Shown: piece after piece, positions 17,152-63,653 of the stretch
Layout of the letters: every line of letters begins with the position of its first letter
How positions within the stretch are numbered: the stretch's first letter is position 1
Source of the DNA: a virus
IMG/VR virus record: IMGVR_UViG_3300044712_001062
Span: 32,001-96,000 of that record
Strand: one strand, 5' to 3'
Length of the DNA stretch: 64,000 bases
Translations under genes and position numbers: made by a program
Notes under the pieces: model-generated
Databases searched by the model: none
Told to the model about the DNA's origin: nothing
What the model saw: only the letters and a program-made list of their open reading frames with translations

Positions 17152-17964
17152 CTGATGCCCAGGTGATCTCTACCAACTTTTTCAATTGGTTTGCTACAAA
17201 TCTTGCAATTCATAATTCACTCATTAATTCTTCAGTTATCCATGCTGCCATGTGTTTAGGGCTACAAAAATCCAGTTCATATATTGATGTTTCATTTTTC
17301 AAAATACCAGCACAAATATGATCAAAATGTAACCAGTGATTATCTCCGGCGTAAATATGGATATAATCAGTTTTATCTGTGAGAATATACCCACAATAGT
17401 CACATTTGCATATTTTGATTTCTTCGGTGCTCATAATTAACTCTATAATATATTTTATCAATTATCAATTACTTCTACAATTCGAAATGTATTGATGAAA
17501 TTTTTGGCTTCTTCTACACTATCAAATGTGTTATTTAATAGATATTGATCTCTTGATACGACCTTGTATTTTGTCTGTTTAGGTATAAATTCCTTACAAT
17601 ATATTTTAGCATCCTTGGAATTTTCAAATGGACAATTTGCCATATATCCAGGATTTACATGTTCATGTATTGCACTTATCATATGATTCATACACAATTT
17701 ACATTTGGTATAATCGTTTGAAATTGTATAAAATTTACAATTTATTTTTGTCATGTCAATTACCTATTTATAAATTACCTTTAATTTTTTTCATTTTTAA
17801 TAATTTAGAAAAATAATATAGTTTATTCCTCTAATTGACAATTATGTATAGGTCGTGAAATATATTAAATCTTTTCATTCATAATAATCCATCAATTAAA
17901 TAATTTGTAAGGATGATCAATACAATTACTAATATAATGATCAGTGAGATTTTAAATGTTTTTA

Positions 17965-21720: not shown

Positions 21721-24700
21721 TAGAATACCTCTATGATTTTAAATTCGTAATGGATCTTCAATTTACATCCAGTCAATGAAGTCAGGGCCTTTAACCTGCA
21801 TCATTACATCGTCATTGCACGCTTTTGCAAACGACAGCCCATTCCAAAGTAGAAATAGACCAGTTTCAACATCCTGATTATGTTCAATCATATTGTAACC
21901 TATAATGGCTTCGTCTATGAACCGTCTAACTTCGTTCACTTTATATACTAACTGTCGATGTTCCATTTGAGGAAGATCACTTTCGTTAACTTCTATAATT
22001 CTACTCATTTTAATACCTCTATGATTTTAAATTTGTAAACTAATCACTGATCACCATTTATGACCGCATTGTCTACACTCATGATCGAAATACCGTTTCG
22101 TTAATATCTTATTCCTATTCTCAATATGAGTAACATCATAACTGCCACACATTGGGCAAGTTTCTACTCTATCATTCATCATTTTATACACCTCTATTAT
22201 TTACTACCAGTAACCTTCGTATAAAACACATGATAATTTGGCTAAATCCCAAGCACCCATGTGATATCTACACATTTGATCTTCAGCATAATAATATTCT
22301 TTAACTTGTCGAATTGAATAAACATTACATTTCGATCCATCGCAATGTATACATGAATCAGACATTGTTAAACACCATTTTCTGGATCATAACTTGAACA
22401 TCTATCAATGTTATCATAACATGCTAAAATTCCACGAATTCTTCCTTTAAGTTCACAAAATTGAACATCTTGTAATTTACCATCAGGATCTTCTCGTGTC
22501 CAATATTTAACAAATTCATATCCAGGATACTCAACATTTTTCAATTGACAACTTGGATAATTATCAGCATTATGATCTAAATGTTTACACTTTTGCAATT
22601 CAGACATTATGCACCTCTATCATTTTCATTCATTTTAACGAAGATCCTTAAACATTAAATATATAGTTCCGATAATTAAATAACCAATACAAAATACGTT
22701 AATTGATGTCATTATATAATCTGCAATTGTCATTATGAACCTCTGGGATTATCGAGGATATATGGTTCTCCAATTGGTGAATTTGACAAATCTCCTCTGG
22801 TTACTAATACTGGAATTTCATCACTAATGTTGTATAGTTTTACACTGGTGATACGCACTTGGGTATTATTTAACTTCATTGTATAGGTATAAAGTGATTT
22901 ATCTTTAGTTATGGATGTTACTGTTGCATTTTCAATTGATTCATGATTTGCAAATGAATCATACATTATAATTGTTGCCGTTGCTATTATCCACATTATA
23001 ATAATTATTATTAAAATAAATCCAATGTCCATAATTTTTTCGCTATTCATTTTTAAATTACCAATGATAGGGTTTTCTACATGGGGCTACGTAATATCCA
23101 ACTGGAAATAGTTCACCTTTCATGTAAATGTGTCCATGATATTTACATTTAACACAACTTGTTTCAAATTTCATTGCCTGTTTATCACTTTGAACACATG
23201 GTTCCCAATGCCCATCGGGACAATGAACACCAAGCGATCCATTACAAATTGGGCATTTCATAATTTAATTACCTTTGTTATTTAAGTTCTCATCTCTAAA
23301 ATTTATTCGTGATTCAAATCCTTTGCTTTTTCAAATGCATATCCTCTGGTCATTAGTTCATCAAGATCCACTTGATTTCTAATTTCCATTTCAAGATATA
23401 CAAGATTCCCTGCAATGTTAACCATATCATTCTTTTGCAAACTTTCTTGCATCTTAAATATACAACCTATGCAAAATTCCCGATGAGTGTATTTAATTTT
23501 ATTCATAATTTAATCAACCCAGAAAAAGTCAATTGTTCCATCTCTATTCCATTTATACCAATAATCTCTCTGACATTTAGAACAATATTCTACTCGTGGA
23601 CTATCATTTACATGATCAAAGAAATAATCATCATTGTATCCTGATAGATAAAATGCAGTAGATTTTTCACAATTGCATCTTATATCTTCGGACATAAGAT
23701 CTCTACCACCAATACATTTCCATTTAATTTTCATTTTATTCAACTACTTTAATATATTGACAACCAATTTTAGATTCTATTAATGCATCATAATCAGATT
23801 TATTTTTAACAAATACTGAAATTGGACCATATTCCAAATCTCTCATAAATTTCGATCCACCCATAGAAAAACACACCATCAATTTAACTTCGAATGAATC
23901 ATCCATGATTAAATTAACTTTTTAACTTCAACGATCATAGTCTCAAGAATTTGCACAATATGCTTTAGAACCATCGTGCGTTCTCCTCTCGTAAGCATTT
24001 CATTAGCAGCAAACGTCCGAATGGTCATCATAGATTGATGATGATCGTGATCGATTTGTCTTATAATTTCATCATAAATTGTCATTTAATTCACTTCCTT
24101 TGTAATATTTACAGTAGAACTTTGCTTGTGCCCAACTTTCAAAAGGGCAGTAAATTGGAACTCCCGGATTACTATAATAACATAGATTTCCTTCTGGAGT
24201 AGTATGTTTACATTGAAGACATTTGAGATTTAATTTCATCGTTTTATTCCATCGTCATTTTCAAGCATTTTCCACATATCATTAATATCCCTACGATCAA
24301 AGCATGGAGGTAATACTTTTTTCACACGACTACTTACTTGTGAACGACTATCAAATCCATTGTTTTTGACATTGCATGTATCTCCCCAACCTCCATCTCC
24401 ACCATCGTAAAAAACACACCCAAAACACTGTCCAAATTCTCGTTTATATGTTTCATTCATAATTTATTACCTCAATTCCACGCTATCAATACGAACATCA
24501 GAGCAAATAGCGTTAGTATTATTCCAAGTCCAGTTCCCATAGTTTGGTCGAGAATTGGCCCATTACTTGGATCACAAATCCATTGTCCTGTTTCAGTGAT
24601 GTGGCAATAATATCCACGATCACTGTACGCTGTGTAAATTGGGTTAGTAATATTCATATTAAATTTCTCCATGTTCAAAATTTAATTCAGGGATATGATC

Positions 24701-25363
24701 ACTTGAGTTTGTTGATTTCATAATTTTTACCTGGAATATTTTAGATTATTTTCATTAATTTCTTCAGGTGTTAGGAATTTGTAAGTATCAGTTATTACTT
24801 GATTTTCAATTTCCTCATGGACATATGGCATTACATAATATATTTTTATTAGAATTTCGATGATCAGTAAGATACTTGGCATGTATAGATAATACCAGGG
24901 GAAGTTTATCGTTCCATAGAATTGAGCAGATACAAATGCAAATTGACATATGATCAGCATATAAAATAATACAACTGATAATTTGTTTAATTTGCTATTT
25001 TTCAACTTCTCAATATTTTCACTTGACATTATTATCTCCACGTTTTTTATTTGTTAGATCGATAATGTCAAGGTGGATAACCTTATGACCATTACATAAG
25101 ATACAAATTTTATTTTGTCCTTGACATTTTGGACAAATTACCTTTGCCATATTATATTATATGGAGTTAAAAGAGATAAAGGTTGTGGTTGAGATTTGAA
25201 GGAAGAATAAGGTGGTGAATATCAAAATTTACTTTCAGTTTCGATGATCTCCTTTTGGCAAATTGGACAAGTATATTTTTTACCATTTTCAAATTGAGTT
25301 TCAATCATTTCAACATTACAAATCCCACATAGAATTTTAGTTTCCATTTTAAGTTCTCCAAGT

Positions 25364-26044
25364 TTAATATAAGCGCATTCCATAACACGCAAGAGAATAA
25401 TTACTACTGAATGACGATTTACCAATCACAACCAATTCGATTAAATTATAACCAGCGATTAATGAATTACTTAATGTGACTTCACGCTGTGCATTGGTAG
25501 ATGTTGAGGTATAATCATCATAACCTCCGGAATCCCTTACGCCATTAATATATAAATCATATACTGCACGAGTATTAAATTTATTATTGCTAAAGGATAG
25601 TTTAGTTTCGTTTCCTATTGCGTATATTCTAAATTGATAGCGATCATTGATGGCTGGACTATCCATTATAGTATCATATGATCCAATAGATACTACTTTA
25701 ATAGTGCTATTATTTATGATTTTATTTAATCTTGTTATTGTCCCGGTAACTGGAAGGCAATTATTAGATATATAAGTTCTAATTGCTTTTTCGCTTGGGA
25801 CTTTAAGATCGGTGTTGGTTGATAATGTTCCATCAGTATCCAAATAACTAATTGGCATTTGAGCATCATTAGTAACATTACCAAGCCCTACTTGCGATTT
25901 GGTAACATTATGGGGATTAGTGGTTACATTATCCATATGTCCGGTAGTTTCACTTACCATGTCATTCCAATCACTTGCATTTAAACGACCATTTATAGCA
26001 TCAGTTGGTGCGTTGTCAATTTTAGTAGTTTTCCAAGTCATCAT
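25364..26044 (-). CDS. Tail-fibre-like virion protein
   Basis: NPHNVTKSQVGLGNVTND fibre repeat and DTDGTLS...VPSEKAI motif. Confidence 0.75.
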   Translation of the reverse strand: MMTWKTTKIDNAPTDAINGRLNASDWNDMVSETTGHMDNVTTNPHNVTKSQVGLGNVTNDAQMPISYLDTDGTLSTNTDLKVPSEKAIRTYISNNCLPVTGTITRLNKIINNSTIKVVSIGSYDTIMDSPAINDRYQFRIYAIGNETKLSFSNNKFNTRAVYDLYINGVRDSGGYDDYTSTSTNAQREVTLSNSLIAGYNLIELVVIGKSSFSSNYSLACYGMRLY

Positions 26045-30698: not shown

Positions 30699-33600
30699 TC
30701 ACCCCAAGGCGATTGATAATGCAATGGCAATTGCTTGTGATACTCCACCACTTGAAGCCGGTAACTGACCACTTGGAACTTTACCATCTGCACCCAAACT
30801 TGCTATTCCATTCACATTTCCTTTACTTGATATAAAGGTATCAATCTGTGCATGAGTATTTGTACCTTGATCATAGGTGTGAGAATGAGTGCTAATAGTT
30901 CCAATTAACTTGGCTTCGATTTCAGCACCAGTTATGTCAGAATTCTTTTGGGCATCTGAAGGTGCATGAGTTGCCTGGCTATGATCATATGCAGTTTTAC
31001 CTTTATCACCGACATATGCAGTGGTTGACGATTCTCCTAATGCTAAATGCGCTGATGATATATGAGATTGGATATTAACATTGGCAGGTTCATAAACTCC
31101 AGTGTGATTATGTGTTGATATTGCATATGTTGATGTATCAATGGACCATGTATTTTCTGCAGTTTTCTTTAGTAATCCATATGTTCCAGTTAATGCTGCA
31201 ATGTTTGTTAGATCGGTATCTGCTGGTTGATATACACCACTATGATTATGTGTGGATATAGCGGCATCAGTAATTCCATAACCAGCGAGGGTAGTTGCTG
31301 GATTTTGTTTACCATTCCAAGTTGACTTTTCGGTGTCAGTTACAAAACGGTTGGTTGAATCTTGAGTAATTATACTTGGTGGGTGATTTGCTGGATGAGT
31401 ATAGTTGTTGGCATCACTTGGGGCATGTAATGATGTTATGTGGGTTTGAATTGCTGCATCGGCTGGTTCATAACTGTGAGTGTGGGAATTTATTCCACCA
31501 GTTAATACACTTTCAATTTCACTTTTAGTTATGTCAGAGTTTTTCTGGGCATTGCTTGGAGCATGTGAAGATTGGCTGTGATTGTAGGCAGTGTTACCAT
31601 AATCACCACGGAATGCCGTAGATGAAGTTGTACCGAGTGCCACACCTTCATTAATACGGACGTAAACGGTTCCAGACCACCTATATGCGTAGTTAGTATC
31701 GATGGTAATGTATGCGACTCCAGAATCGCCAGTAACTGGAAGTGCTGCATAATTGGCAACTTCAATGATATCGTCTACGTATGCGGGTAATTGAGTTGTC
31801 GGGATTTTACCACTTTCATTGAGGGATGCCAAACCATTTACTGCACCTTTACTCGCAATAAACGTGTCAATCGTTGAATGTGAATTGGTGCCTGCCCCCG
31901 ATAAGTTTTGGTGAGTGATGTTGCTTTCGTTGATATCGAGGTTTATGGAGTGGTGATCGGTGTCATCGGTTAAACTTAATTTATTACTCAATACGTGAAT
32001 ATTTTTGAATTGGAGGTCTACACCAGACTTTTGGAAGTATAATCCAGTGCCTAAAGTTCCTTGGTTTGATGCTGTATTAACTTCTCCACCAGATCCACCA
32101 CCACTTGCTACGTCAAATAGTCCAAGTTTTCCTGCAGGAATAAACTCTGCTTTAGCAGGATTAGTTAAATCATTTGTACCTTGTTGAACTACAATCCAAC
32201 CACGGAATGTATCGGCTGTGTTGTAGGGGTTTATTTCAATAGCAGTTTGAATTGCAGATTTTGCTGCTTCAAGGGTTGCATATTCAACTTGTCCATATTG
32301 AATGTCATTGGAATTGGTGTATGCGTAGAGTGATACAACTTGAATTGTCCAATATCCTGCAGTTACATCAACGAGTGTTCCGTTTCCATCATCATAGTGA
32401 TCTGGGTCTATAGTTGTTGTGGCTGCTTCATTTGAAACCCATCCACCATCACCGTCTCGATAATAGTAGTAGAATTCACAAGGGCCTTCTGCATTTGATA
32501 CAATGACATTTGGTGATTTTTTAGATACACTGTAATTTGCGCAATTATCGAAAGTTCTACCTGCAGATCGTTTAATAGTTAGACCACTGTTGGCTGAATA
32601 AGTGTTACCCTCGATGTTGAATGCACCGAAATTTTCCAAGAAGTCAGTTAACTGGGCTTGTAAATCACAATTGTAAGTGGGTTCAGTTCGAGCATCAGTA
32701 ATTTCAGTTGCACCGGGACCGGGATGATCAAGCCATCCTATTACAATGAGATCACGACGATCATCATCAGTATACATATCACTGGTAACTAAAATGTCAC
32801 CATCGGCATTGATACAAACATATGAAGTATCGACTGTCGCAATGTAAGGGTCATCAAGGGCTGTTTGCGATTCCCAAGTTACCAAAGTTTTAACAGGGTG
32901 TAACGGATCGGTGTAATTGTTAATGACGATACCTGAACCTGCTGATATGTCAAATTTAGTTGGGTTAACATTGATTGAAAGTTCTCCACCAGTTAATAGA
33001 CCAGTTGATAATGCGGTGATATATTGGTTATGCTCGGCAATTGCAGCAGTTGATAATGGCTTGTTTAAATCACTGGTATTATCAACATTGTTTAATGATA
33101 GATCGGTTTTGGTGAGTCCATGTAGATTTCCAGTTGCTTGAGAGTGATCATAGGCTGTTTTACCACGATCTCCACGGTATGCTGTAGTATTAGTTTCACC
33201 GAGTTGTAAAGTGGTATGATCGTGGGTTGATATAGTGCCGATTAATTTGGCTTCGATTTCAGCCTTGGTTATGTCAGCATTGGCTTGTGCTGAAGCAGGA
33301 GCATGAGGTGTCGAAATATGAGTTTGGATGTTTGCATTGGCTGGTTCTGCCCCAATTTGTGATGCATTAACTCCATGAGGGTTGTTAGTTGCTGAAATGT
33401 GTGATTGGATGTTATTGTTGTAGGGTTCGTAAATTCCACTGTGGTTATGATTGGTATCAGATTTTGCTGATAATGTTGTATCTAAATTTGTTATGTCAGT
33501 TTGAGCATGAACATGTGGATTTGGATTACGAGTATCTGACAACCTGGAATCATTTGTATTAACTTTGTTAGATAGATCAGATGCAGAAGCCTTTAAATTT

Positions 33601-39380: not shown

Positions 39381-41520
39381 GGTTGATTGTCCTTGGGTTT
39401 TTAAATTTTAGATTTCGTTGATTGTGTGATAGTTTGGTTGGCGAATTATCCAGCGTGCAAAGTCATTAGTGGGATTCTTGAGCCACATGATGTATGGTTT
39501 TTGTGTTTTTACGTTTTTAAATGATACTTCATATTCATTGCTTGTTGGATAGTAGTGAATGTAATTGAGATGATAATGGTTGATCATTCCTTGTATACAC
39601 ATTTGCATTTCATATGATGAAATTTTACTCCATTGATGGTCAGTGTTGATACTTTGAAATAACATGATGGATGATCCTTTGGTTTTTAAATTTTTAAAAT
39701 TTGTTAATTTTTTAGATGATCTCAAGTTTATCATTATCAACTAATTTCCACATGAGACCTTTGCCGTCCATTAACAGGATGGTTTGAGTGGTCTGGTCTT
39801 TACATAGGTGAAGTTCTGGAGTGAACTGGAATGAATTTAGTTGGTTGATTAGTGCCTGGAGGATCAATTGAGAGACGTAGAGGTCTTTACTGGTGAACTT
39901 TCCAATATCGCAGATGATTGACATTTGTGTTTTAAATGTTGTGTTTTTCATGATGTTAAATTTTTAGATCCATAGAGGATCTGAAAATTGTGTGGTGGTG
40001 GACGGCTCAACTCCAGTCTATGAGACCCATGCTCATGAGTTCTTCTTTTGATAATTTCATTTTTTGTTGGACTCGATGACATTTTAAGATTGAACATTTT
40101 GCTGGATCGCAGTGGTGGAGTGTGTTTGTGATGTATGTACAGGTTTTAATGATATCACCTTTGTTCCATAATATATTAGTTAAATGTATATTTAGTTGTT
40201 TTCAATTGTATCATGATCATTGGTTGTTAGGTGGTCAAATGGAGGGGGGAAATCTACCAAATTGTTGTATAGATTGTGAATGAGGTCGATTGATGATCGA
40301 ATTACGTTGTTTTTCATATCAGTGTAATAGCCACTGGAGTTGATGAATTCATCAAGGGATTTATAGAGGCAGGATGTTATACAATCGTGGGTTAAATGGA
40401 TGTTCATGCCATTGTCATCGAGATAGCCAAGGATCATAATGGCATCGAAATAGTTCAACAATCCTGAATTGACATCCTGGATGATTTGAGTATTGAAATC
40501 TGTGTTATCAGGATCATATAGGGTATCTTCAAGTGGTGTATAACATGGTTCGAAATAGAGTTCAGTGTAGTAATGTTCATTGAGCCATTCTCGGTTTAGT
40601 GGTGAGGTGGTTAGTGTTATCATGATGGGTTCCTTGGTTTTAGAATTTTAAATAATGTGATGATCGATTTTGTGATGATCGAATTGGTGATGATCTACTA
40701 ATTCCAACTTTCAATTACTTTATTATGATTATCATATTCTACAAGTTTATCATACCATTCGTTATTACATTGTAGAAAATCAGTCCCTTCATTGTTTATG
40801 ATTTTGATGGCTTCTTGATCATTTTCAGCCTCAAATTCATATTCCATGGTTGTAATAAATGTGTATTTTTTCATGGTGGTGTTCTCCAAGTTTTAAAATT
40901 CTGTAAATTTGTTTAGTTCTTTGTTATAGAGCAATTTTGATTCTACATAATCACAATCTTCTAAAAGTTCTGATATCTGTTGTTTAGTTCTGTTTGATAA
41001 TTTGAAATTGGTTGTTAGATGGCTTACTCCTTTTCTAATTTCATTAATTTGATCTATGTTCATGATAAGAAATCCTTTTAGAATTTTAATGGAGTTATTT
41101 TTGGTAAAGTTTTTTGATTATTTGATCAATCATTTCAATGTCATTTGGTGTGTTATGAGATGATTGGCTCATCCGCTTAAGCATTAGTGTGCTGAATAAG
41201 AATGAGGTTTCATCATCTGTGAAATGTAATCCTTGGGCCTTCTCATTGGACATTTGCGATCTCCTGGAACATGATGTGATTGTCGTGGATTTTGAAAGTT
41301 TTGGGGTAGAGTTGTACGAGGGTGAGTGGTTCAAGGTGGATTTTTGAAGCATAGGATAACTTCATTTTGTGAGTTTTGGATTTTGCGAGTTTGACTTTGA
41401 GTTTTATGGCTTTGTCGTAAGGGGTTTCACTGGCTGCGATTAGTTGTTTTTTCAATTGGCGCTTGAGGGATGGGGTTAGTTCAGTCATTATGGTTCTCCA
41501 AGTTTTAAAAATTTTAATTG

Positions 41521-42054: not shown

Positions 42055-45000
42055 GATGTTCTCCAAGTTTTAAAAATTTTTAAACGATTAGTTTTTCTCA
42101 TTGGTCAGTGTTTTACAGTAGATGTGAAATAACTCATCTTTTGGGAATTTTGATTCGGTGAATTCGTTTAGTTTTTCCCAAGCATCATTAGAGTTAGATG
42201 CATCGATGAGGATAGTTCCTTCGATGTTAAACATGTAGGTTGTCATTTAAAATCTCCAAGTTTTAAAAATTTATGGAATCGAAATTGATAGTAATTTCAA
42301 ATTTTTCGCCAATAGGATTGTTTTCTTCATCTGTGATTGTAATAAATACTTGTGTATTAGTCACAGTCATTGATTCATTGTTAAGTTTTTGATTTGCTTC
42401 TTTAATGAATTTCGCAAGTGTTTCGCTGCTATTGGCTTTAATTGTAGTTTTTTTAATAATTTCAATTTCAAAATAATCCATTATCATACTCCTTTGTTTT
42501 AAAAATTTTAATTGTTAGTTCCCCACATCTTGAGGCCTTTGTAGGTTTCAATAAAGTGGTAATCGTTGTTCAGATACTGCTCAAAGGTTTTGAACATTTT
42601 AGTTTGAACCTGCTTTGCAGTGATTTTATAGATTTGGACTTCTTTGTTGTCGTTTATGTATTCAACGATTGTAGAAGTTCCTTGCTTGAATACTCGTGCT
42701 TCAGTGAGGTCAAGTCCAAATTCTTCGAGGGGTGTTTTGTTTTCAAATTCAAACCACATTGTTGTCATGAATTAATGTTGGTTGTTTATGGTTATAAAGG
42801 TTTGGTGTGAGGTTGCTCCAAAGTGAAAAAATAAGGAGATTTTACTTTATTCTGGGGGATCAAATGATGATTTCATCAATCTATTAGCGTAAGCGCGAAG
42901 ACTGATGGCGTTGTCGATTTTGAGTTTGAAAGATTCTGGCTGATCGAAATCGCCATGAACGTCAATTTGACCACCTGTGCTTGGGGTGCCCAGGCGAATG
43001 ACATCTGGGATTTTCTCAGGTTTTGAGATGTGTAGGTTAAACATGGTAGTTCACGGGGGTTGTTTTCAAAATTTGATTAATAGGCTATTTCCATTGCGTT
43101 TTTGAAAAGTTTAGAATGGTTGTTTCCTTCGGAATTCCAGGTGGAGTATCCACCATATGCTATGAGGGCTTCGACTTTCATTTCATTGGTGATTTCAGGC
43201 TCGTTTGTTAGACTGGAGTAATGTAAAGCGTTTTCAATTATTAGTTCATCGATTTCGCTTAAGGTTAGTTCATGGACTTCAATGAGGTATTTATTTGGGT
43301 GATTGTGGTCCATTGCATGATGGAGGTTTGTTAGGGAAATTACTTGATAGGTGTCATTGTCTGTGGTTTTGTACCATGAGCCATCCCATTCAGACCAATT
43401 GAGGTCGCCAGTGAGGAAGTTCCAAGATTTAGGTAAAGGTGGATTAGTGGTCATTTTAAGTTCCTTGGTTTATGATAAATCTTCAATGCCTAATATGTTA
43501 TTGAATCTTTTAATGACATCAACATTACAATGATATACAATAATAGGAATTACTTTCTTATTTTCCATAATAAGTGCTTGTTTGGCTTTGTTGGTGTCTT
43601 TACTGAATTGTACTTCGATGAACTTATGAAGTTTATCAGAGTAATAGAGTTTCATATAACACCAATACCGTTCAGAGTCATTGTAATGTTCGGCAATCAA
43701 TTCAATTGTTGATATGTCAATAATTTTATTTGTGTGCTTACAAGTATGTTCACAAATAGTTGTATAAAGAGGGCAAATTTCTGATTCTGTTTTCATTTTC
43801 GCTTCTATTTTTGGTTCTGGTTCTATTTCAATTGTCATTGGTTTTTCCTTGGGTTCAAATCTTTCAAAAAATGCTACTATTTCTTTCCATTGAACCCACG
43901 TCATTACATGATAAGTCCCGTCATCATAATCGAACCTTACCATAGGTTGTTCATTTGAGTAATACGTTGATGGTTGCATGTTTTATTTCTCCAAGTTTTA
44001 AAATTTTTAATTGTTTAATATCTTGTAAAGCCATTTTCGAATTTGGATTTTAAATTGGGATATGCATTTATTAATTTGTCATATGTTTTTTGTATGTCAT
44101 GCTTGGTAGGATTATGTTCACTTCTGGTCATTTGGAAATGCTTTAGACTTGAAATAATAAGTTCCAAGTCATCATTGTTTAATTCAATAGACATTTTATG
44201 ATCCTTTGTTTTTTAAATTTTAGAGTTAGTTCGATCATTTTGTTTAATAATTACTTATGATGTAATCGTGGAGGAGTGATCGGTAGGCTTCATTACATAG
44301 AGTGATAAAGGATGATTTGTCAATTTCACGATCTAACATTTTACTTTCGAGATGGCTGATGAAATTGTAATCGTCTATGATGTTGCAGAGATCGCTTGGG
44401 GTTTTAATGAAGTCGTTGTTTTCACAGTAGTAAAAGGCATTGTCGAATACTTCATCACTGTTTAGGTTTAGCCCTTCTTCATGGTAGAAAATGTTCAGAT
44501 GGGCGTGCAGTTGTTTTTGTAAGGTGTAAGTGTATGACATTAGGTACTCCTTGGTTTTTAGAATTTTTAAATGGTTGATGATCAAATTGTTCATTGATCA
44601 ATACCTTGGGTTTTTTAAATTTTAAATGGGGTTATTTTTCATTAATATCAATAGTCATTTTTTTTACTTTTTTCCAATTTGGTTTAACTTTGTAAGAATC
44701 ACATAAACATGCTGATGGTTCAAAATATTCACGATCATTAAAACATTCCATTAATGCAAAACACGGGACTTCAATAGAGTCACAATCATCACATCGAAAT
44801 AGATTATAGTTTACTTCATTCATAATTACTCATTGGGTTTTAGAATCTTAAAGGAGTTGTTTTAGAACCATATAAAATTTATTACGTTTACAATTGTTAG
44901 GAATATCAATGCATAAATTAGGATGTTTTCTATTGTAAATAATAGAAATGTTATGATTGATCCATGCTTCCACATTTCAGGAGTAAATGATTCAGTAGTT

Positions 45001-46167: not shown

Positions 46168-46207
46168 ATACACGTAGACATTTCATTTCTATTTTTTTTG
46201 TTTGTCG

Positions 46208-46277
46208 ACATTTGGCATCAGAAAATGAATAGGATAAACATTTTTAGTAATTAATCATTTCATCATTTGCCTAATGT
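46208..46277 (-). ncRNA. Box C/D-like (K-turn) small RNA directly 3' of tRNA-Leu
   Basis: ACAUU-A-GGCA-A-AUGAUGA ... CUGA-UGCC-A-AAUGU: perfect box C and box D in canonical K-turn register with a terminal stem. Confidence 0.65.
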
Positions 46278-46281
46278 TTAA

Positions 46282-46364
46282 TGGGTAATAGCCGATTTGC
46301 ACGGCTGAACTCCTATGAGGCGACATCTTGAGTGTCGTGGGTTTGACTGCTTCCCTAATTACCC
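46282..46364 (-). tRNA. tRNA-Leu(CAA), variant D/T loops
   Basis: GGGTAAT/ATTACCC acceptor stem; GGG/CCC D stem; CGACA-CT-CAA-GA-TGTCG anticodon arm; long variable arm CTC-ATAG-GAG; AGCCG-TGCAAAT-CGGCT T arm; discriminator A; no encoded CCA. Confidence 0.85.
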
Positions 46365-46754
46365 AAAATTTGAGCATTTGGTTGGTTGATGTTCGATACC
46401 TCACACTTTGGAAACAGGTTAGTGTTTCATTGGCCTCTCATCACATGACCAATCCGGGTGAGTATCGGATTTGAAATGATCATGCACATGTGGAGATTGG
46501 TGAACTGACTTCCATTTGTATATGGTTGTTAGTTCCCTGTTATGTATATTGTATGTCAGAGGTTATATACATTTTGGTTGGTAGTTTGAATCTGGGAAAG
46601 TTTGTTTCTTTGATTCGTTGCTACGATACTAATGTTGGTTTGATTAGTATTTATAGTTATGGGATTTATAATTTGTTAAAATTGAGAAGGGTTATCAGTT
46701 TTGAGAAGAGTAAAGGATCTGAAAATGGTGTGATCGCTAATTAGGTTCTCCAAG

Positions 46755-46925
46755 TGCACCCATAGACAGAATCAGAGTGTGAACTTCCAGCCCCTTCTGT
46801 TTAGAGCAGTTTGGATGGGTATGTGCGCAGGATGATCGTGTTAGGGAATTGTGTTTAGAGGATAGGGATGCTCACGTAAACAGTGAGGGTGTGGTAAGAC
46901 ACATCTTCATCTGTCTATGGGTGCA
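46755..46925 (-). ncRNA. ~170-nt closed ncRNA with a perfect 16-bp terminal inverted repeat
   Basis: TGCACCCATAGACAGA (46755-46770) and its exact reverse complement (46910-46925). Minus-strand TTTAAATA (46954-46947) plus 22 nt puts the TSS at the G of GCACCC. Confidence 0.7.
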
Positions 46926-46949
46926 AAATAATGTAGGTATTGACTGTAT

Positions 46950-47402
46950 TTAAATGTTTGTCTGGTTAGAATTTTTGTAGTTAAGGATCTCTGAATCGCA
47001 AAGTTGATCGCAAATTGAGGTATAGTGATTTTCTCTTGGATTCCATGTGAGGGTTATGTGGGTGTTGGTGAATAGGGCTTGGCCAAGGATGGTGATTGTA
47101 TTGTGGAGTTTTTTTAAGGTTGGATTGTTGATTTTGTAAGAGCCGTTTAGTTGGTTGATTAGTAATTGTGAATCGCTTATGAGGTGGATATCAGTTTCAT
47201 TGGTGATTAGGTGTTTGTTATGCATGAGGTAGGTTAGTGCTTCGATCATGGCTGTGTACTCAGCGATGTTGTTAGTGGTGTTAATGCCTACTATGCCGGA
47301 TGATTGGTGAGCAAGGCGATCATCTATGAGGATTACATAGGCGAATGCTGCGATTCCTGGATTGGGTTGTGCCCCTCCATCTGTGTAGATTTTAAGTGTC
47401 AT
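46950..47402 (-). CDS. rnhA: Ribonuclease HI
   Basis: IYTDGGAQPNPG, TNNIAEY, SDSQLLINQLNGSYKI, PRENxxxxxCDQL: D-E-D-D catalytic set. Confidence 0.92.
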   Translation of the reverse strand: MTLKIYTDGGAQPNPGIAAFAYVILIDDRLAHQSSGIVGINTTNNIAEYTAMIEALTYLMHNKHLITNETDIHLISDSQLLINQLNGSYKINNPTLKKLHNTITILGQALFTNTHITLTWNPRENHYTSICDQLCDSEILNYKNSNQTNI

Positions 47403-48376: not shown

Positions 48377-48490
48377 GGATTTTAATGGGGGTTAAAAATG
48401 AAGATTAATTACTAATCAATTATTGGGGTTTAAAAATGAGAAAGGTTTACTAATTGATTATTGATAGAGGATCTGAAAATAATGTGATGA

Positions 48491-50620: not shown

Positions 50621-50861
50621 GTGGTTTTCGAAATTTTATAATACCCGAGATATCGGTTATTAAATGCATGTTGTTAACTTTTCTATTTTGTTCAATGTGT
50701 CCGGAGCCATCGGACATTGGATATAATACCCCCGAATGGTGTTGTTAAATTATATTAATTGATTATTATAATTTGTTCATCGGTCAGTGTAACACGGACC
50801 AGCCTAAACTTATAAAGATTTTGGTGCGCAAATGTTTCTGGCTAAAAGAGTTCAAAGACTG

Positions 50862-50924
50862 CTCTAAACAAAACAAAGAAGGAAGGTTTTCCCTTTTCGT
50901 TTTGCTCGTTAGGCACATACAAAT
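50862..50924 (-). ncRNA. Dispersed hairpin-RNA element, copy F
   Basis: Minus strand: TATATAAA (50944-50937), 12 nt, ATTTGTATGTGCCT, purine-rich arm, pyrimidine-rich arm, then GTTTTGTTTAGAG. Confidence 0.72.
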
Positions 50925-51059: not shown

Positions 51060-51193
51060 TTTCGCGGTAACTATAGAGGTTTTTTGTATTGTCTTTTTTT
51101 AGAAAAAATACCTGGAAAAGTTTAGGTAAAAATTTCGCGGTAACTGGGAAGACTTTTTTCTTTGTTTTTTTAAATTAAAAATACCTGGAAAAG
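51060..51193 (+). repeat. Two imperfect 73-bp tandem repeats
   Basis: TTTCGCGGTAACT at 51060 and 51133; ATACCTGGAAAAG at 51108 and 51181 (both 73 apart). Confidence 0.8.
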
Positions 51194-51843
51194 CAAAGTT
51201 AAAAAATTTTAGTAAAGTTAAAAGATGTTGAATTGTGTGGTCACTTATATCCTGGGATTAATATATTAAAATTTGAATAAAAGTAAGGTGGTTTGATAGG
51301 TAGTATTATAGTAGGTTGTGGTGTTGTTTGGTATTTAAAGGAAGATAGATCGATAGGTTTATATATTTTTAGATCTAATTTTATTATGTCAAAGGTGAAG
51401 TGAATGTATAAATCAAAAATGTATAAAACCAAAGTGGCTTTGTTGTTTGGACTGAATACTGTATTATTGTATACAATTGTATTTGTATCATGGTTTAAGG
51501 TGTTCTGATGTTGTTACAAGGTGAATACCCCCATTTGGTTGAAGGACTTATAAATCAGTACAAATGTTTAAACTGTGGACATTATTTACAACTTGTTTCA
51601 CTTGGTTATAATTATCCAGATATGATAATATGCGATCAGAAAGAATGTTCATATATGAAGGTGCTATAAAATGGAAAAAATCGAATGTAGTTTAATTACT
51701 GCTATGGAGATCATGAATGAGAATTATGCTTTGTATACTTTAGAACGAGATATGACTAATTATACCTGGTATCATAATGGTGTTGGATTAGGATCTTACA
51801 ATGAGTATACAAAGGAATTTGTGTATAGGGAGGTTTGATTATT

Positions 51844-57936: not shown

Positions 57937-58007
57937 CGACTACTATTTGCGAACTTTTATAACTCACGCGCACATAAAACCCTGCTAAAAAAGACCCGGA
58001 AAAACTA

Positions 58008-63561: not shown

Positions 63562-63653
63562 ATTTTTCATTTTTACGCGACAAATCTCAAGGCTCATATG
63601 GAGAACCAATTCCCTAACACCACAATTTTTGAAAGAACAAACGCCCCCAAATA

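Follow-up and report, generated by a model that had tools for sequence, protein, structure and literature searches.

An uncultured tailed virus of archaeal type carries, downstream of its RNase HI gene, a 171-nt element that we consider a well-supported derivative of a hairpin-RNA family encoded by the same virus, built, to judge from its sequence, from three diverged family-like modules without itself being a member. The virus is represented by record IMGVR_UViG_3300044712_001062 (135,061 bp, linear, estimated completeness 83%), and the stretch analyzed here, referred to as the window, comprises the 64,000 nt from base 32001 to base 96000 of that record; positions are those of the window unless stated otherwise. 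The element is bounded by a perfect 16-nt inverted repeat, TGCACCCATAGACAGA / TCTGTCTATGGGTGCA, at 46755–46770 and 46910–46925, with 139 nt between the arms. Our preferred but tentative reading, to which we assign a probability of roughly 40%, is that it may be a fold-back small RNA (sRNA) gene that arose from the hairpin family and acts as an antisense regulator or sponge.

The family was delineated with an nhmmer profile that recovers exactly 17 members in the record, all at E ≤ 2e-9. Each unit is ordered as a TATA box, 11–14 nt, a 5′ motif ATTTGTATGT(G/A)C, a leader, a hairpin of 20–25 bp (5′ arm purine-rich, 3′ arm pyrimidine-rich), a 3′ motif TTGTTTAGAG and a T-tract. Units often face each other as convergent plus/minus pairs, which the genome has at 7 places, flanking gene groups or nothing, and their upstream conservation ends at the B recognition element (BRE), as expected of a promoter and not of a transposon end. 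Two short sequences tie the element to these units. The 9-mer TGTTTAGAG has 11 copies in the record, nine in family units, two, each on the plus strand, in the element and none elsewhere, and GTATGTGC has 19 copies, 15 in family units, one in the element (46819) and three elsewhere. Alignment with 8 of the 17 family units resolves the element into a left and a mid module on the plus strand and a right module on the minus strand that carries the promoter. The minus-strand module shares the promoter type, spacer and spacing of the family, including an 11-nt identity, ACAGTCAATAC, between its spacer and that of unit F in an alignment of upstream regions made by eye; the leader sequence TGCACCCATAGACAGA resembles TGTGCCCATGGACA, and the modules are arranged convergently, as family units are.

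The kinship is incomplete in each module. Only the right module has the TATA box at the family distance, and the left and mid modules lack it. The invariant 5′ motif is absent from all three, being represented in the right module by ATTATTTTGCAC (7 of 12 positions), in the mid module only by GTATGTGC, and in the left module by the replacement CTCCAAGTGCAC. The 3′ motif is exact (TGTTTAGAG) in the left and mid modules and takes the form CTGTTTAcgtGAGCA in the right one, where CUGUUUAcguGAGCA equals the family 3′ motif with a 3-nt insertion (CGT); a T-tract follows none of them, and the purine/pyrimidine hairpin of the family is found in 0 of 3. Whereas family units each fold on themselves, the outer modules of the element pair with each other: the left and right modules are inverted copies, identical at 16 of 16 positions and then showing 31 matches, 10 mismatches and 10 gap columns (~76%), and thus form one long hairpin, in which the reverse complement of the left module makes up the 3′ half of the minus-strand RNA. 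The element also departs from the family in base composition, with a guanine-plus-cytosine (GC) content of 47.4% against a family-unit mean of 34.2% and flanks of 34–36%. This places it in the top 2.8% of 171-nt windows and close to the level of the local tRNA genes, and the boundaries of the GC island coincide with those of the element.

Folded as the minus-strand RNA, the element reaches a minimum free energy (MFE) of −59.2 kcal/mol (z = −6.8) with 45 pairs, all of them Watson-Crick. Several parts had been named in the original prediction, and we recovered all of them: the perfect terminal inverted repeat, a TATA box of the element's own on the minus strand over the RNase HI stop codon, 21 nt from the stem, the UGAAGA...CUGA sequences adjoining the stem together with the small helices UGUG/CACA and CUCAC/GUGAG, a C/A-rich loop of 60 unpaired nt (A19 C25 G3 U13), and an extra GTATGTGC and a second TGTTTAGAG (46852). 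The apical loop carries CCUCUAAACACA (46850–46861), the complement of the family 3′ motif, and GCGCACAUAC (46819–46828), the complement of the 5′ motif, with predicted probabilities of being unpaired of 0.97 and 0.87. For the promoter we built a position weight matrix (PWM) from the 17 family promoters and scored it over 270,070 positions, taking the family range from leave-one-out scoring. The minus-strand promoter TTTAAATA scores 6.9 bits, which ranks it 148th and inside the family range, and its TATA box, BRE-like ACA and spacer ACAGTCAATAC match the family promoters at a spacing of 14 nt (family 11–14 nt). We regard the minus strand as somewhat more probably the transcribed one. The GC island, the step from 16/16 to ~76% arm identity, the retained promoter and the nearly G-free loop speak for a function of the element, the first two as hints of selection.

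The minus-strand RNA is complementary to the family to a degree that neither control reaches. Against the 17 family RNAs its mean duplex energy is −40.8 kcal/mol, compared with −28.2 ± 2.5 kcal/mol for 120 shuffles and −26.0 ± 3.2 kcal/mol for 130 real segments, of which 0/120 and 0/130 reach the value of the element. The complementarity comes mainly from the 3′ half (−39.5 kcal/mol), that is, the antisense of the left module, which averages −39.4 kcal/mol against the 17 units where the sense strand of the same module gives −25.1; for reference, the value is −55.3 kcal/mol with true antisense units and −36.5 kcal/mol with sense units. In these models the accessible region is complementary to its putative partners beyond chance, as expected of a trans-acting antisense or sponge sRNA. 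Descent accounts for this complementarity, since of the three diverged modules two stand in inverted orientation to the promoter, and an antisense function of the element would be possible but not required.

The original prediction had gone further, describing the loop as a mosaic of antisense matches to individual family copies and their tails and proposing a hub RNA that pairs with them. The exact matches exist, at 13 nt (50858–50870), 14 nt (63607–63620) and 9 nt (57968–57976), but targeting of particular copies or tails finds no support in them. The match of 13 nt falls on unit F's copy of the conserved family 3′ motif. That of 14 nt is located ~27 nt past unit H and cannot be extended, and the 9-nt match, TATGTGCGC, has 0.53 expected and 2 observed occurrences (~40% chance expectation); both "tail" matches fall outside family units and at chance level. 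The argument that two matches of 13–14 nt would be unlikely by chance also fails: genome-wide there are three matches of at least 13 nt, the third being 14 nt (GGATGATCGTGTTA) on the same strand inside the UvrD-helicase open reading frame (ORF), and at least three such matches arise in 2.4% of 2000 dinucleotide shuffles and in 42% of 1500 random real 171-nt segments. When the element was aligned by Smith-Waterman with the 200 nt downstream of each unit, the only matches were the 14-nt one at unit H, with 3 nt more beyond a gap, and, for one pair, the partner unit's 3′ motif. With the tail matches at chance, the 13-nt match a shared motif and three or more matches common among real segments of this repeat-rich genome, copy-specific targeting is unsupported. 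What survives of the hub proposal is a non-chance link to the family as a whole, visible in motif exclusivity, duplex energies and promoter strand: read from the better-placed promoter, the family motifs are antisense, and two of the three anti-motifs are in the open loop.

Under our preferred reading, transcription would start from the retained minus-strand promoter at the first base of the stem and read through the right module, whose 3′ motif would have lost its T-tract through the CGU insertion, to end near a T4-containing motif ~30–45 nt past the stem. This would yield an RNA of ~200 nt folded into a 45-bp, all-Watson-Crick imperfect hairpin, with the perfect 16-bp stem closing it. Complements of the family 3′ motif (UGUUUAGAG) and 5′ motif (GUAUGUGC) would be exposed in the G-poor apical loop of 60 nt, and the 3′ arm would amount to a full-length antisense of a generic family unit. 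The loop could then pair with the family RNAs, many or all 17 of them, through their conserved ends, if the mature RNAs keep these, making the element a putative antisense or sponge of the family and not of particular copies. In the window the putative terminator sequence, ATTTTCAGATCCTYTA, recurs as three exact copies (39973–39988, 46711–46726 and 48465–48480), each of them on the minus strand, against 0.32 expected; one of them sits 11–26 nt past the stop codon of a 242-aa ORF, and the motif may be a terminator or a regulatory site.

A number of observations weigh against this reading. Descent from the family itself predicts complementarity, which by itself is thus no demonstration of antisense function. 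The strongest antisense segment, together with one of the two anti-3′ motifs, is held in the element's own stem (probability unpaired 0.18). The promoter scores below 12 of the 17 family promoters in leave-one-out scoring, and mismatches between the arms show no G-U asymmetry pointing to either strand. The family profile does not recognize the element, returning one 16-nt nhmmer match at E = 18. No homologue was found in the collections searched; in the three relatives that have RNase HI, and likewise on two short metagenome contigs, an ORF and not such an element comes straight after the gene. The strongest rival is a functionless by-product, a compact decayed convergent pair with a partial third unit left beside RNase HI by local duplication or recombination, whose antisense matches would be homology. 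Convergent pairs are the usual arrangement of the family at its 7 genome places and occur in relatives too, no module keeps the purine/pyrimidine hairpin or the invariant 5′ motif, the profile match at E = 18 fits such decay, and the five related records hold no counterpart. The surroundings also look rearranged: directly past the stem is an orphan ribosome-binding motif that no start codon follows, and a degenerate, ~80% identical copy of the element's promoter region (CATAACTATAAATACTAATCAAACCAACATTA) lies at 46630–46660 (−), ~100 nt downstream of the element and 270 nt from the original, which suggests another small transcription unit heading toward the tRNA-like gene. Against this rival, the GC content exceeds that of family units and flanks by 13 points over an island that ends where the element does, which is not the expected outcome of decay in a 36%-GC genome; in addition, the 16-bp stem is perfect on otherwise ~76% identical arms, a well-placed promoter is kept, and the loop is almost free of G and of structure. 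We judge a by-product unlikely, though by no means negligible.

Three further explanations appear less probable still. The element might gather binding sites for a protein and work either as DNA or as an RNA decoy on either strand; the family 5′ and 3′ motifs would then be recognized by one viral or host factor of transcription, termination or processing, which the three or four sites would titrate or recruit. The idea, raised already alongside the original prediction, gains from the fact that the only non-family copies of the 3′ motif are the two in the element, with one 5′ motif alongside, and from the positions of the motifs in the family, where the 5′ motif spans the expected transcription start and the T-tract is part of the 3′ motif, places that would be typical of protein or polymerase signals. 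In the element these motifs stand without the promoter or hairpin context of the family, no candidate binding protein was found and the neighboring ORFs have no Pfam or PHROG match; we consider such a cluster improbable. The element starts 24 nt past the RNase HI stop codon on the same strand and is followed by a 1.3-kb ORF-poor stretch, again on the same strand, with a tRNA-Leu-like gene and a C/D-like RNA, while the T4-containing motif just downstream also follows another ORF. It could then be a cis-acting end structure, either a 3′ stabilizer or terminator of the RNase HI operon mRNA or the 5′ leader of a precursor running on into the tRNA-like, C/D-like and minihelix RNAs downstream. The family-type promoter at its canonical distance, the relatives' RNase HI genes that lack such a 3′ structure and the family motifs, which would be left unexplained, make this quite improbable. 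Plus-strand transcription would instead yield two tandem hairpin-less sense family-like units, degenerate extra copies of the family, with the minus-strand promoter inactive or serving something else. All family motifs in the element are indeed sense on the plus strand, which folds at −67.4 kcal/mol (z = −4.5), has a TATA-like site at 46657–46683 (4.8 bits, rank 266) and carries a T5 tract past the element (46970–46974). That site, however, lies 76–98 nt upstream of the element where the family spacing is 11–14 nt, and scores below the minus-strand promoter; the z-score is weaker than the −6.8 of the minus strand, and the neighboring genes and RNAs are all on the minus strand, so we give this possibility very little weight.

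We compared the element with known classes of structured RNA and DNA elements. Rfam reported nothing on it, either in a scan of the whole window at gathering score or in a scan of 46200–47000 at E ≤ 10. Its AUGAAGA (6 of 7 positions of RUGAUGA) and CUGA by the terminal stem, able to form tandem G-A pairs, recall archaeal box C/D sRNAs, but the box C/D-like motif proposed originally forms a symmetric 3x3 UGA/GAU loop and not a kink-turn with a 3-nt bulge. The element also lacks C′/D′ boxes (no internal UGAUGA/CUGA pair was seen by eye), measures 171 nt against the ~50–70 nt of such sRNAs, and went unmatched by Rfam although a C/D-like RNA 480 nt away was reported; we rejected this assignment. 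Trans-activating CRISPR RNA (tracrRNA) anti-repeats pair with the repeats of CRISPR RNAs (crRNAs), and IS110/IS621 elements encode a bridge RNA; both resemble the element in being one RNA with complements to sequence common to many RNAs or loci. The resemblance ends there, since the record has no arrays and no IS110 DEDD recombinase or reverse transcriptase: PF01548 had 0 matches in the 135-kb record at E ≤ 0.1 while control genomes matched, and PF00078 (RVT_1) had 0 matches in the record, the RVT_3 match being the RNase H fold itself, so that an IS110-type bridge RNA and a retron noncoding RNA were both set aside. No Cas-like protein appeared in Pfam scans of 38 larger ORFs, and neither L7Ae nor Nop domains were found in the record. 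Guide, bridge and C/D mechanisms, all entertained in the original prediction, are hence not borne out. The perfect 16-bp terminal inverted repeats round a short non-coding core are those of a miniature inverted-repeat transposable element (MITE) or fold-back element, a candidate we discarded on its single copy in the virus and the lack of a target-site duplication (no flanking direct repeat of at least 3 nt; flanks ...CCAAG and AAATA...). A coding role was likewise dismissed, the ORFs of the element being limited to 27 and 34 aa, starting with GTG/TTG and lacking a ribosome-binding site, and no tRNA or transfer-messenger RNA was called within it.

The nearest functional analogy is to phage-encoded anti-sRNAs (sponges) such as AgvB of enterohaemorrhagic Escherichia coli (EHEC) prophages (PMC4104026). 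The likeness lies in a virus-encoded small RNA, an exposed segment complementary to other small RNAs, and titration as the proposed outcome. Anti-sRNAs of the AgvB type are reportedly bacterial, Hfq-dependent and aimed at host sRNAs, whereas the putative partners here would be the virus's own 17 RNAs in an archaeal-type host.

Relatives of the element were sought at several levels. The 16-mer of the arm had four matches in viral contigs, all to a single arm; both arms together had 0 matches in a 596-Gb collection of prokaryote genomes; blastn of the element against 50,697 phage records gave none; and BLAST against five related virus records that carry the hairpin family (G001–G005; family-B DNA polymerase (PolB) 36–57% identical) gave only matches of 14–29 nt. 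Among inverted repeats with perfect arms of at least 13 nt in those five records there were four candidates, none resembling the element. The one public run containing the record, a DNA run of a rhizosphere metagenome and probably its source, yielded one identical contig and no variants; no RNA run was listed as containing it. RNase HI searches returned two distant loci in viral contigs and 80 loci in metagenome contigs, the three closest (55, 44 and 40% identity) being on contigs of 1–1.9 kb without the element, and no relative of the 242-aa neighbor ORF was found. For the family itself, the 5′ motif gave at least 108 single chance matches in viral contigs and the two-motif pattern 7 matches there (one unrelated sequence six times and one other); genome contigs gave 15 single chance matches in assorted bacteria, and nhmmer over 216 loci recovered 5′-motif-only matches and no family unit.

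In the five related records, by comparison, the family profile gave 20 matches at E ≤ 0.05, corresponding to 19 loci. Inspected by eye, these loci show TATA boxes, purine/pyrimidine hairpins, virus-specific 5′ motifs and 3′ motifs such as TTTTGTTATG, and convergent pairs recur among them, for example at 17406+/17677− in G001 and 88366+/88803− in G003. By these matches the hairpin family is conserved in the five related virus records, with virus-specific end motifs. A limited literature search turned up no description of the family, too thin a basis for calling it unpublished. In all three of the relatives that have RNase HI, a family-type unit lies ~200–600 nt upstream of that gene on the same strand, and in G001 and G003 this unit is expanded; in the virus studied here it is the family-derived element that sits beside the gene, and just downstream of it.

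The record encodes a PolB, a UvrD-type helicase, the anaerobic ribonucleotide reductase NrdD, an MT-A70 methylase, a RuvB-like ATPase, RNase HI, tail-tube proteins and Mtd_N-headed fiber proteins, and its promoters are of the archaeal BRE/TATA kind. PolB (record positions 23216–25510, outside the window) has relatives 72% identical on a 133-kb Joint Genome Institute (JGI) contig and 61% identical on a 65-kb contig, and one at 55% identity whose source label is a Methanospirillum sp. metagenome-assembled genome. That label, together with NrdD, is a hint, not proof, of an anaerobic methanogen host. Genes of the record run on the minus strand to ~82 kb and on the plus strand beyond, and the plus-strand GC skew over window positions 1–64000 is negative to ~24 kb, positive from 26 to 53 kb and then negative again; because the skew switches while genes stay on the minus strand to ~50 kb of the window, it does not track transcription. 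Near this change of gene orientation, two tandem 73-nt repeats that are 75% identical (51060–51205) adjoin the E/F convergent pair.

Everything in the immediate neighborhood of the element, genes as well as the C/D-like and tRNA-like RNAs, is on the minus strand. The intervals 46211–46274 (−) and 46281–46365 (−) hold a tRNA-Leu(CAA) and, a few nt past it, a stem-closed RNA that contains AUGAUGA...CUGA. The stem-closed RNA has many sub-threshold Rfam matches to C/D snoRNAs (best 26 bits against a gathering score of 45), and the tRNA was called by ARAGORN and went unreported by the Rfam tRNA model even at E ≤ 10. The orphan motif that abuts the stem contains CTTGGAGAA, of which the record has 31 copies against ~1 expected, 28 of them on the minus strand (for example at 41494–41502, 43987–43995 and 46746–46754). 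An ATG follows 4–8 nt downstream in 22 of the 31, and 20 of those 22 open ORFs of at least 41 codons; five copies, that beside the element among them, have no ATG within 25 nt. Judged from this placement, CTTGGAGAA is a strongly conserved ribosome-binding context of the virus. Coordinates of the features are collected in the table.

Table. Features of the element, its flanks and the related loci (window coordinates, except the last row)
Feature	Coordinates	Strand	Basis or remark
BRE/TATA-type box TTTAAATA	46947..46954	-	overlaps RNase HI stop codon; 21 nt upstream of stem
Promoter spacer ACAGTCAATACCTAC + ATTATTT	46926..46946	-	counterpart of family spacer and first part of family 5′ motif; aligned by eye
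Closing stem, 5′ arm of minus-strand RNA, UGCACCCAUAGACAGA	46910..46925	-	perfect 16-bp inverted repeat; paired in MFE structure
Closing stem, 3′ arm	46755..46770	-	perfect 16-bp inverted repeat; paired in MFE structure
Right module, diverged family-like unit, sense	46862..46936	-	promoter, leader, CUGUUUAcguGAGCA; alignment with 8/17 family units
Apical loop, ~60 nt, G-poor, predicted unpaired	46809..46868	-	probability unpaired, composition, module alignment
Mid module, hairpin-less, family-like	46813..46868	+	alignment with 8/17 family units
Left module, family-like unit, sense, without TATA box	46743..46816	+	alignment with 8/17 family units
First exact family 3′ motif TGTTTAGAG	46798..46806	+	extends into the 13-nt match with unit F
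Second exact TGTTTAGAG	46852..46860	+	exact match
Orphan ribosome-binding context CTTGGAGAAcc	46744..46754	-	directly 3′ of stem 3′ arm; no ATG within 25 nt
ATTTTCAGATCCTTTA, motif with T4 tract, candidate RNA 3′ end or terminator	46711..46726	-	29–44 nt past stem
RNase HI gene	46950..47402	-	Pfam RNase_H 6.9e-10, phrog_531 2.3e-20; directly upstream neighbor, outside the RNA
Family-type units near RNase HI in relatives	G004:93707-94315, G001:33595-33927, G003:105765-106168		profile E 0.0068 (G004), 0.2 (G001); G003 by eye only

Archaeal viruses have hardly been explored for regulatory RNAs. Should there be a minus-strand RNA that pairs with the family, an archaeal virus would by itself encode a whole sRNA-against-sRNA circuit, which would offer an experimental handle on the function of the conserved hairpin-RNA family. 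We can speculate more broadly, on a version of events that we hold to be unlikely, that tailed viruses of ~130 kb and archaeal type, probably infecting methanogens, form a clade with genome-wide sets of self-promoted hairpin RNAs, and that this virus has evolved from such units a dedicated "anti-hairpin" RNA. Its G-free loop would present complements of the invariant 5′ and 3′ ends of the family, and a single transcript could then bind, titrate or direct the processing of all 17 RNAs together, as a master antisense switch of a viral sRNA regulon. In this version, the position of the element beside RNase HI may be meaningful, given that a family-type unit also lies beside this gene in three related viruses. 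Even without a function, the element documents a family of hairpin RNAs spawning new structured RNAs by inverted duplication.

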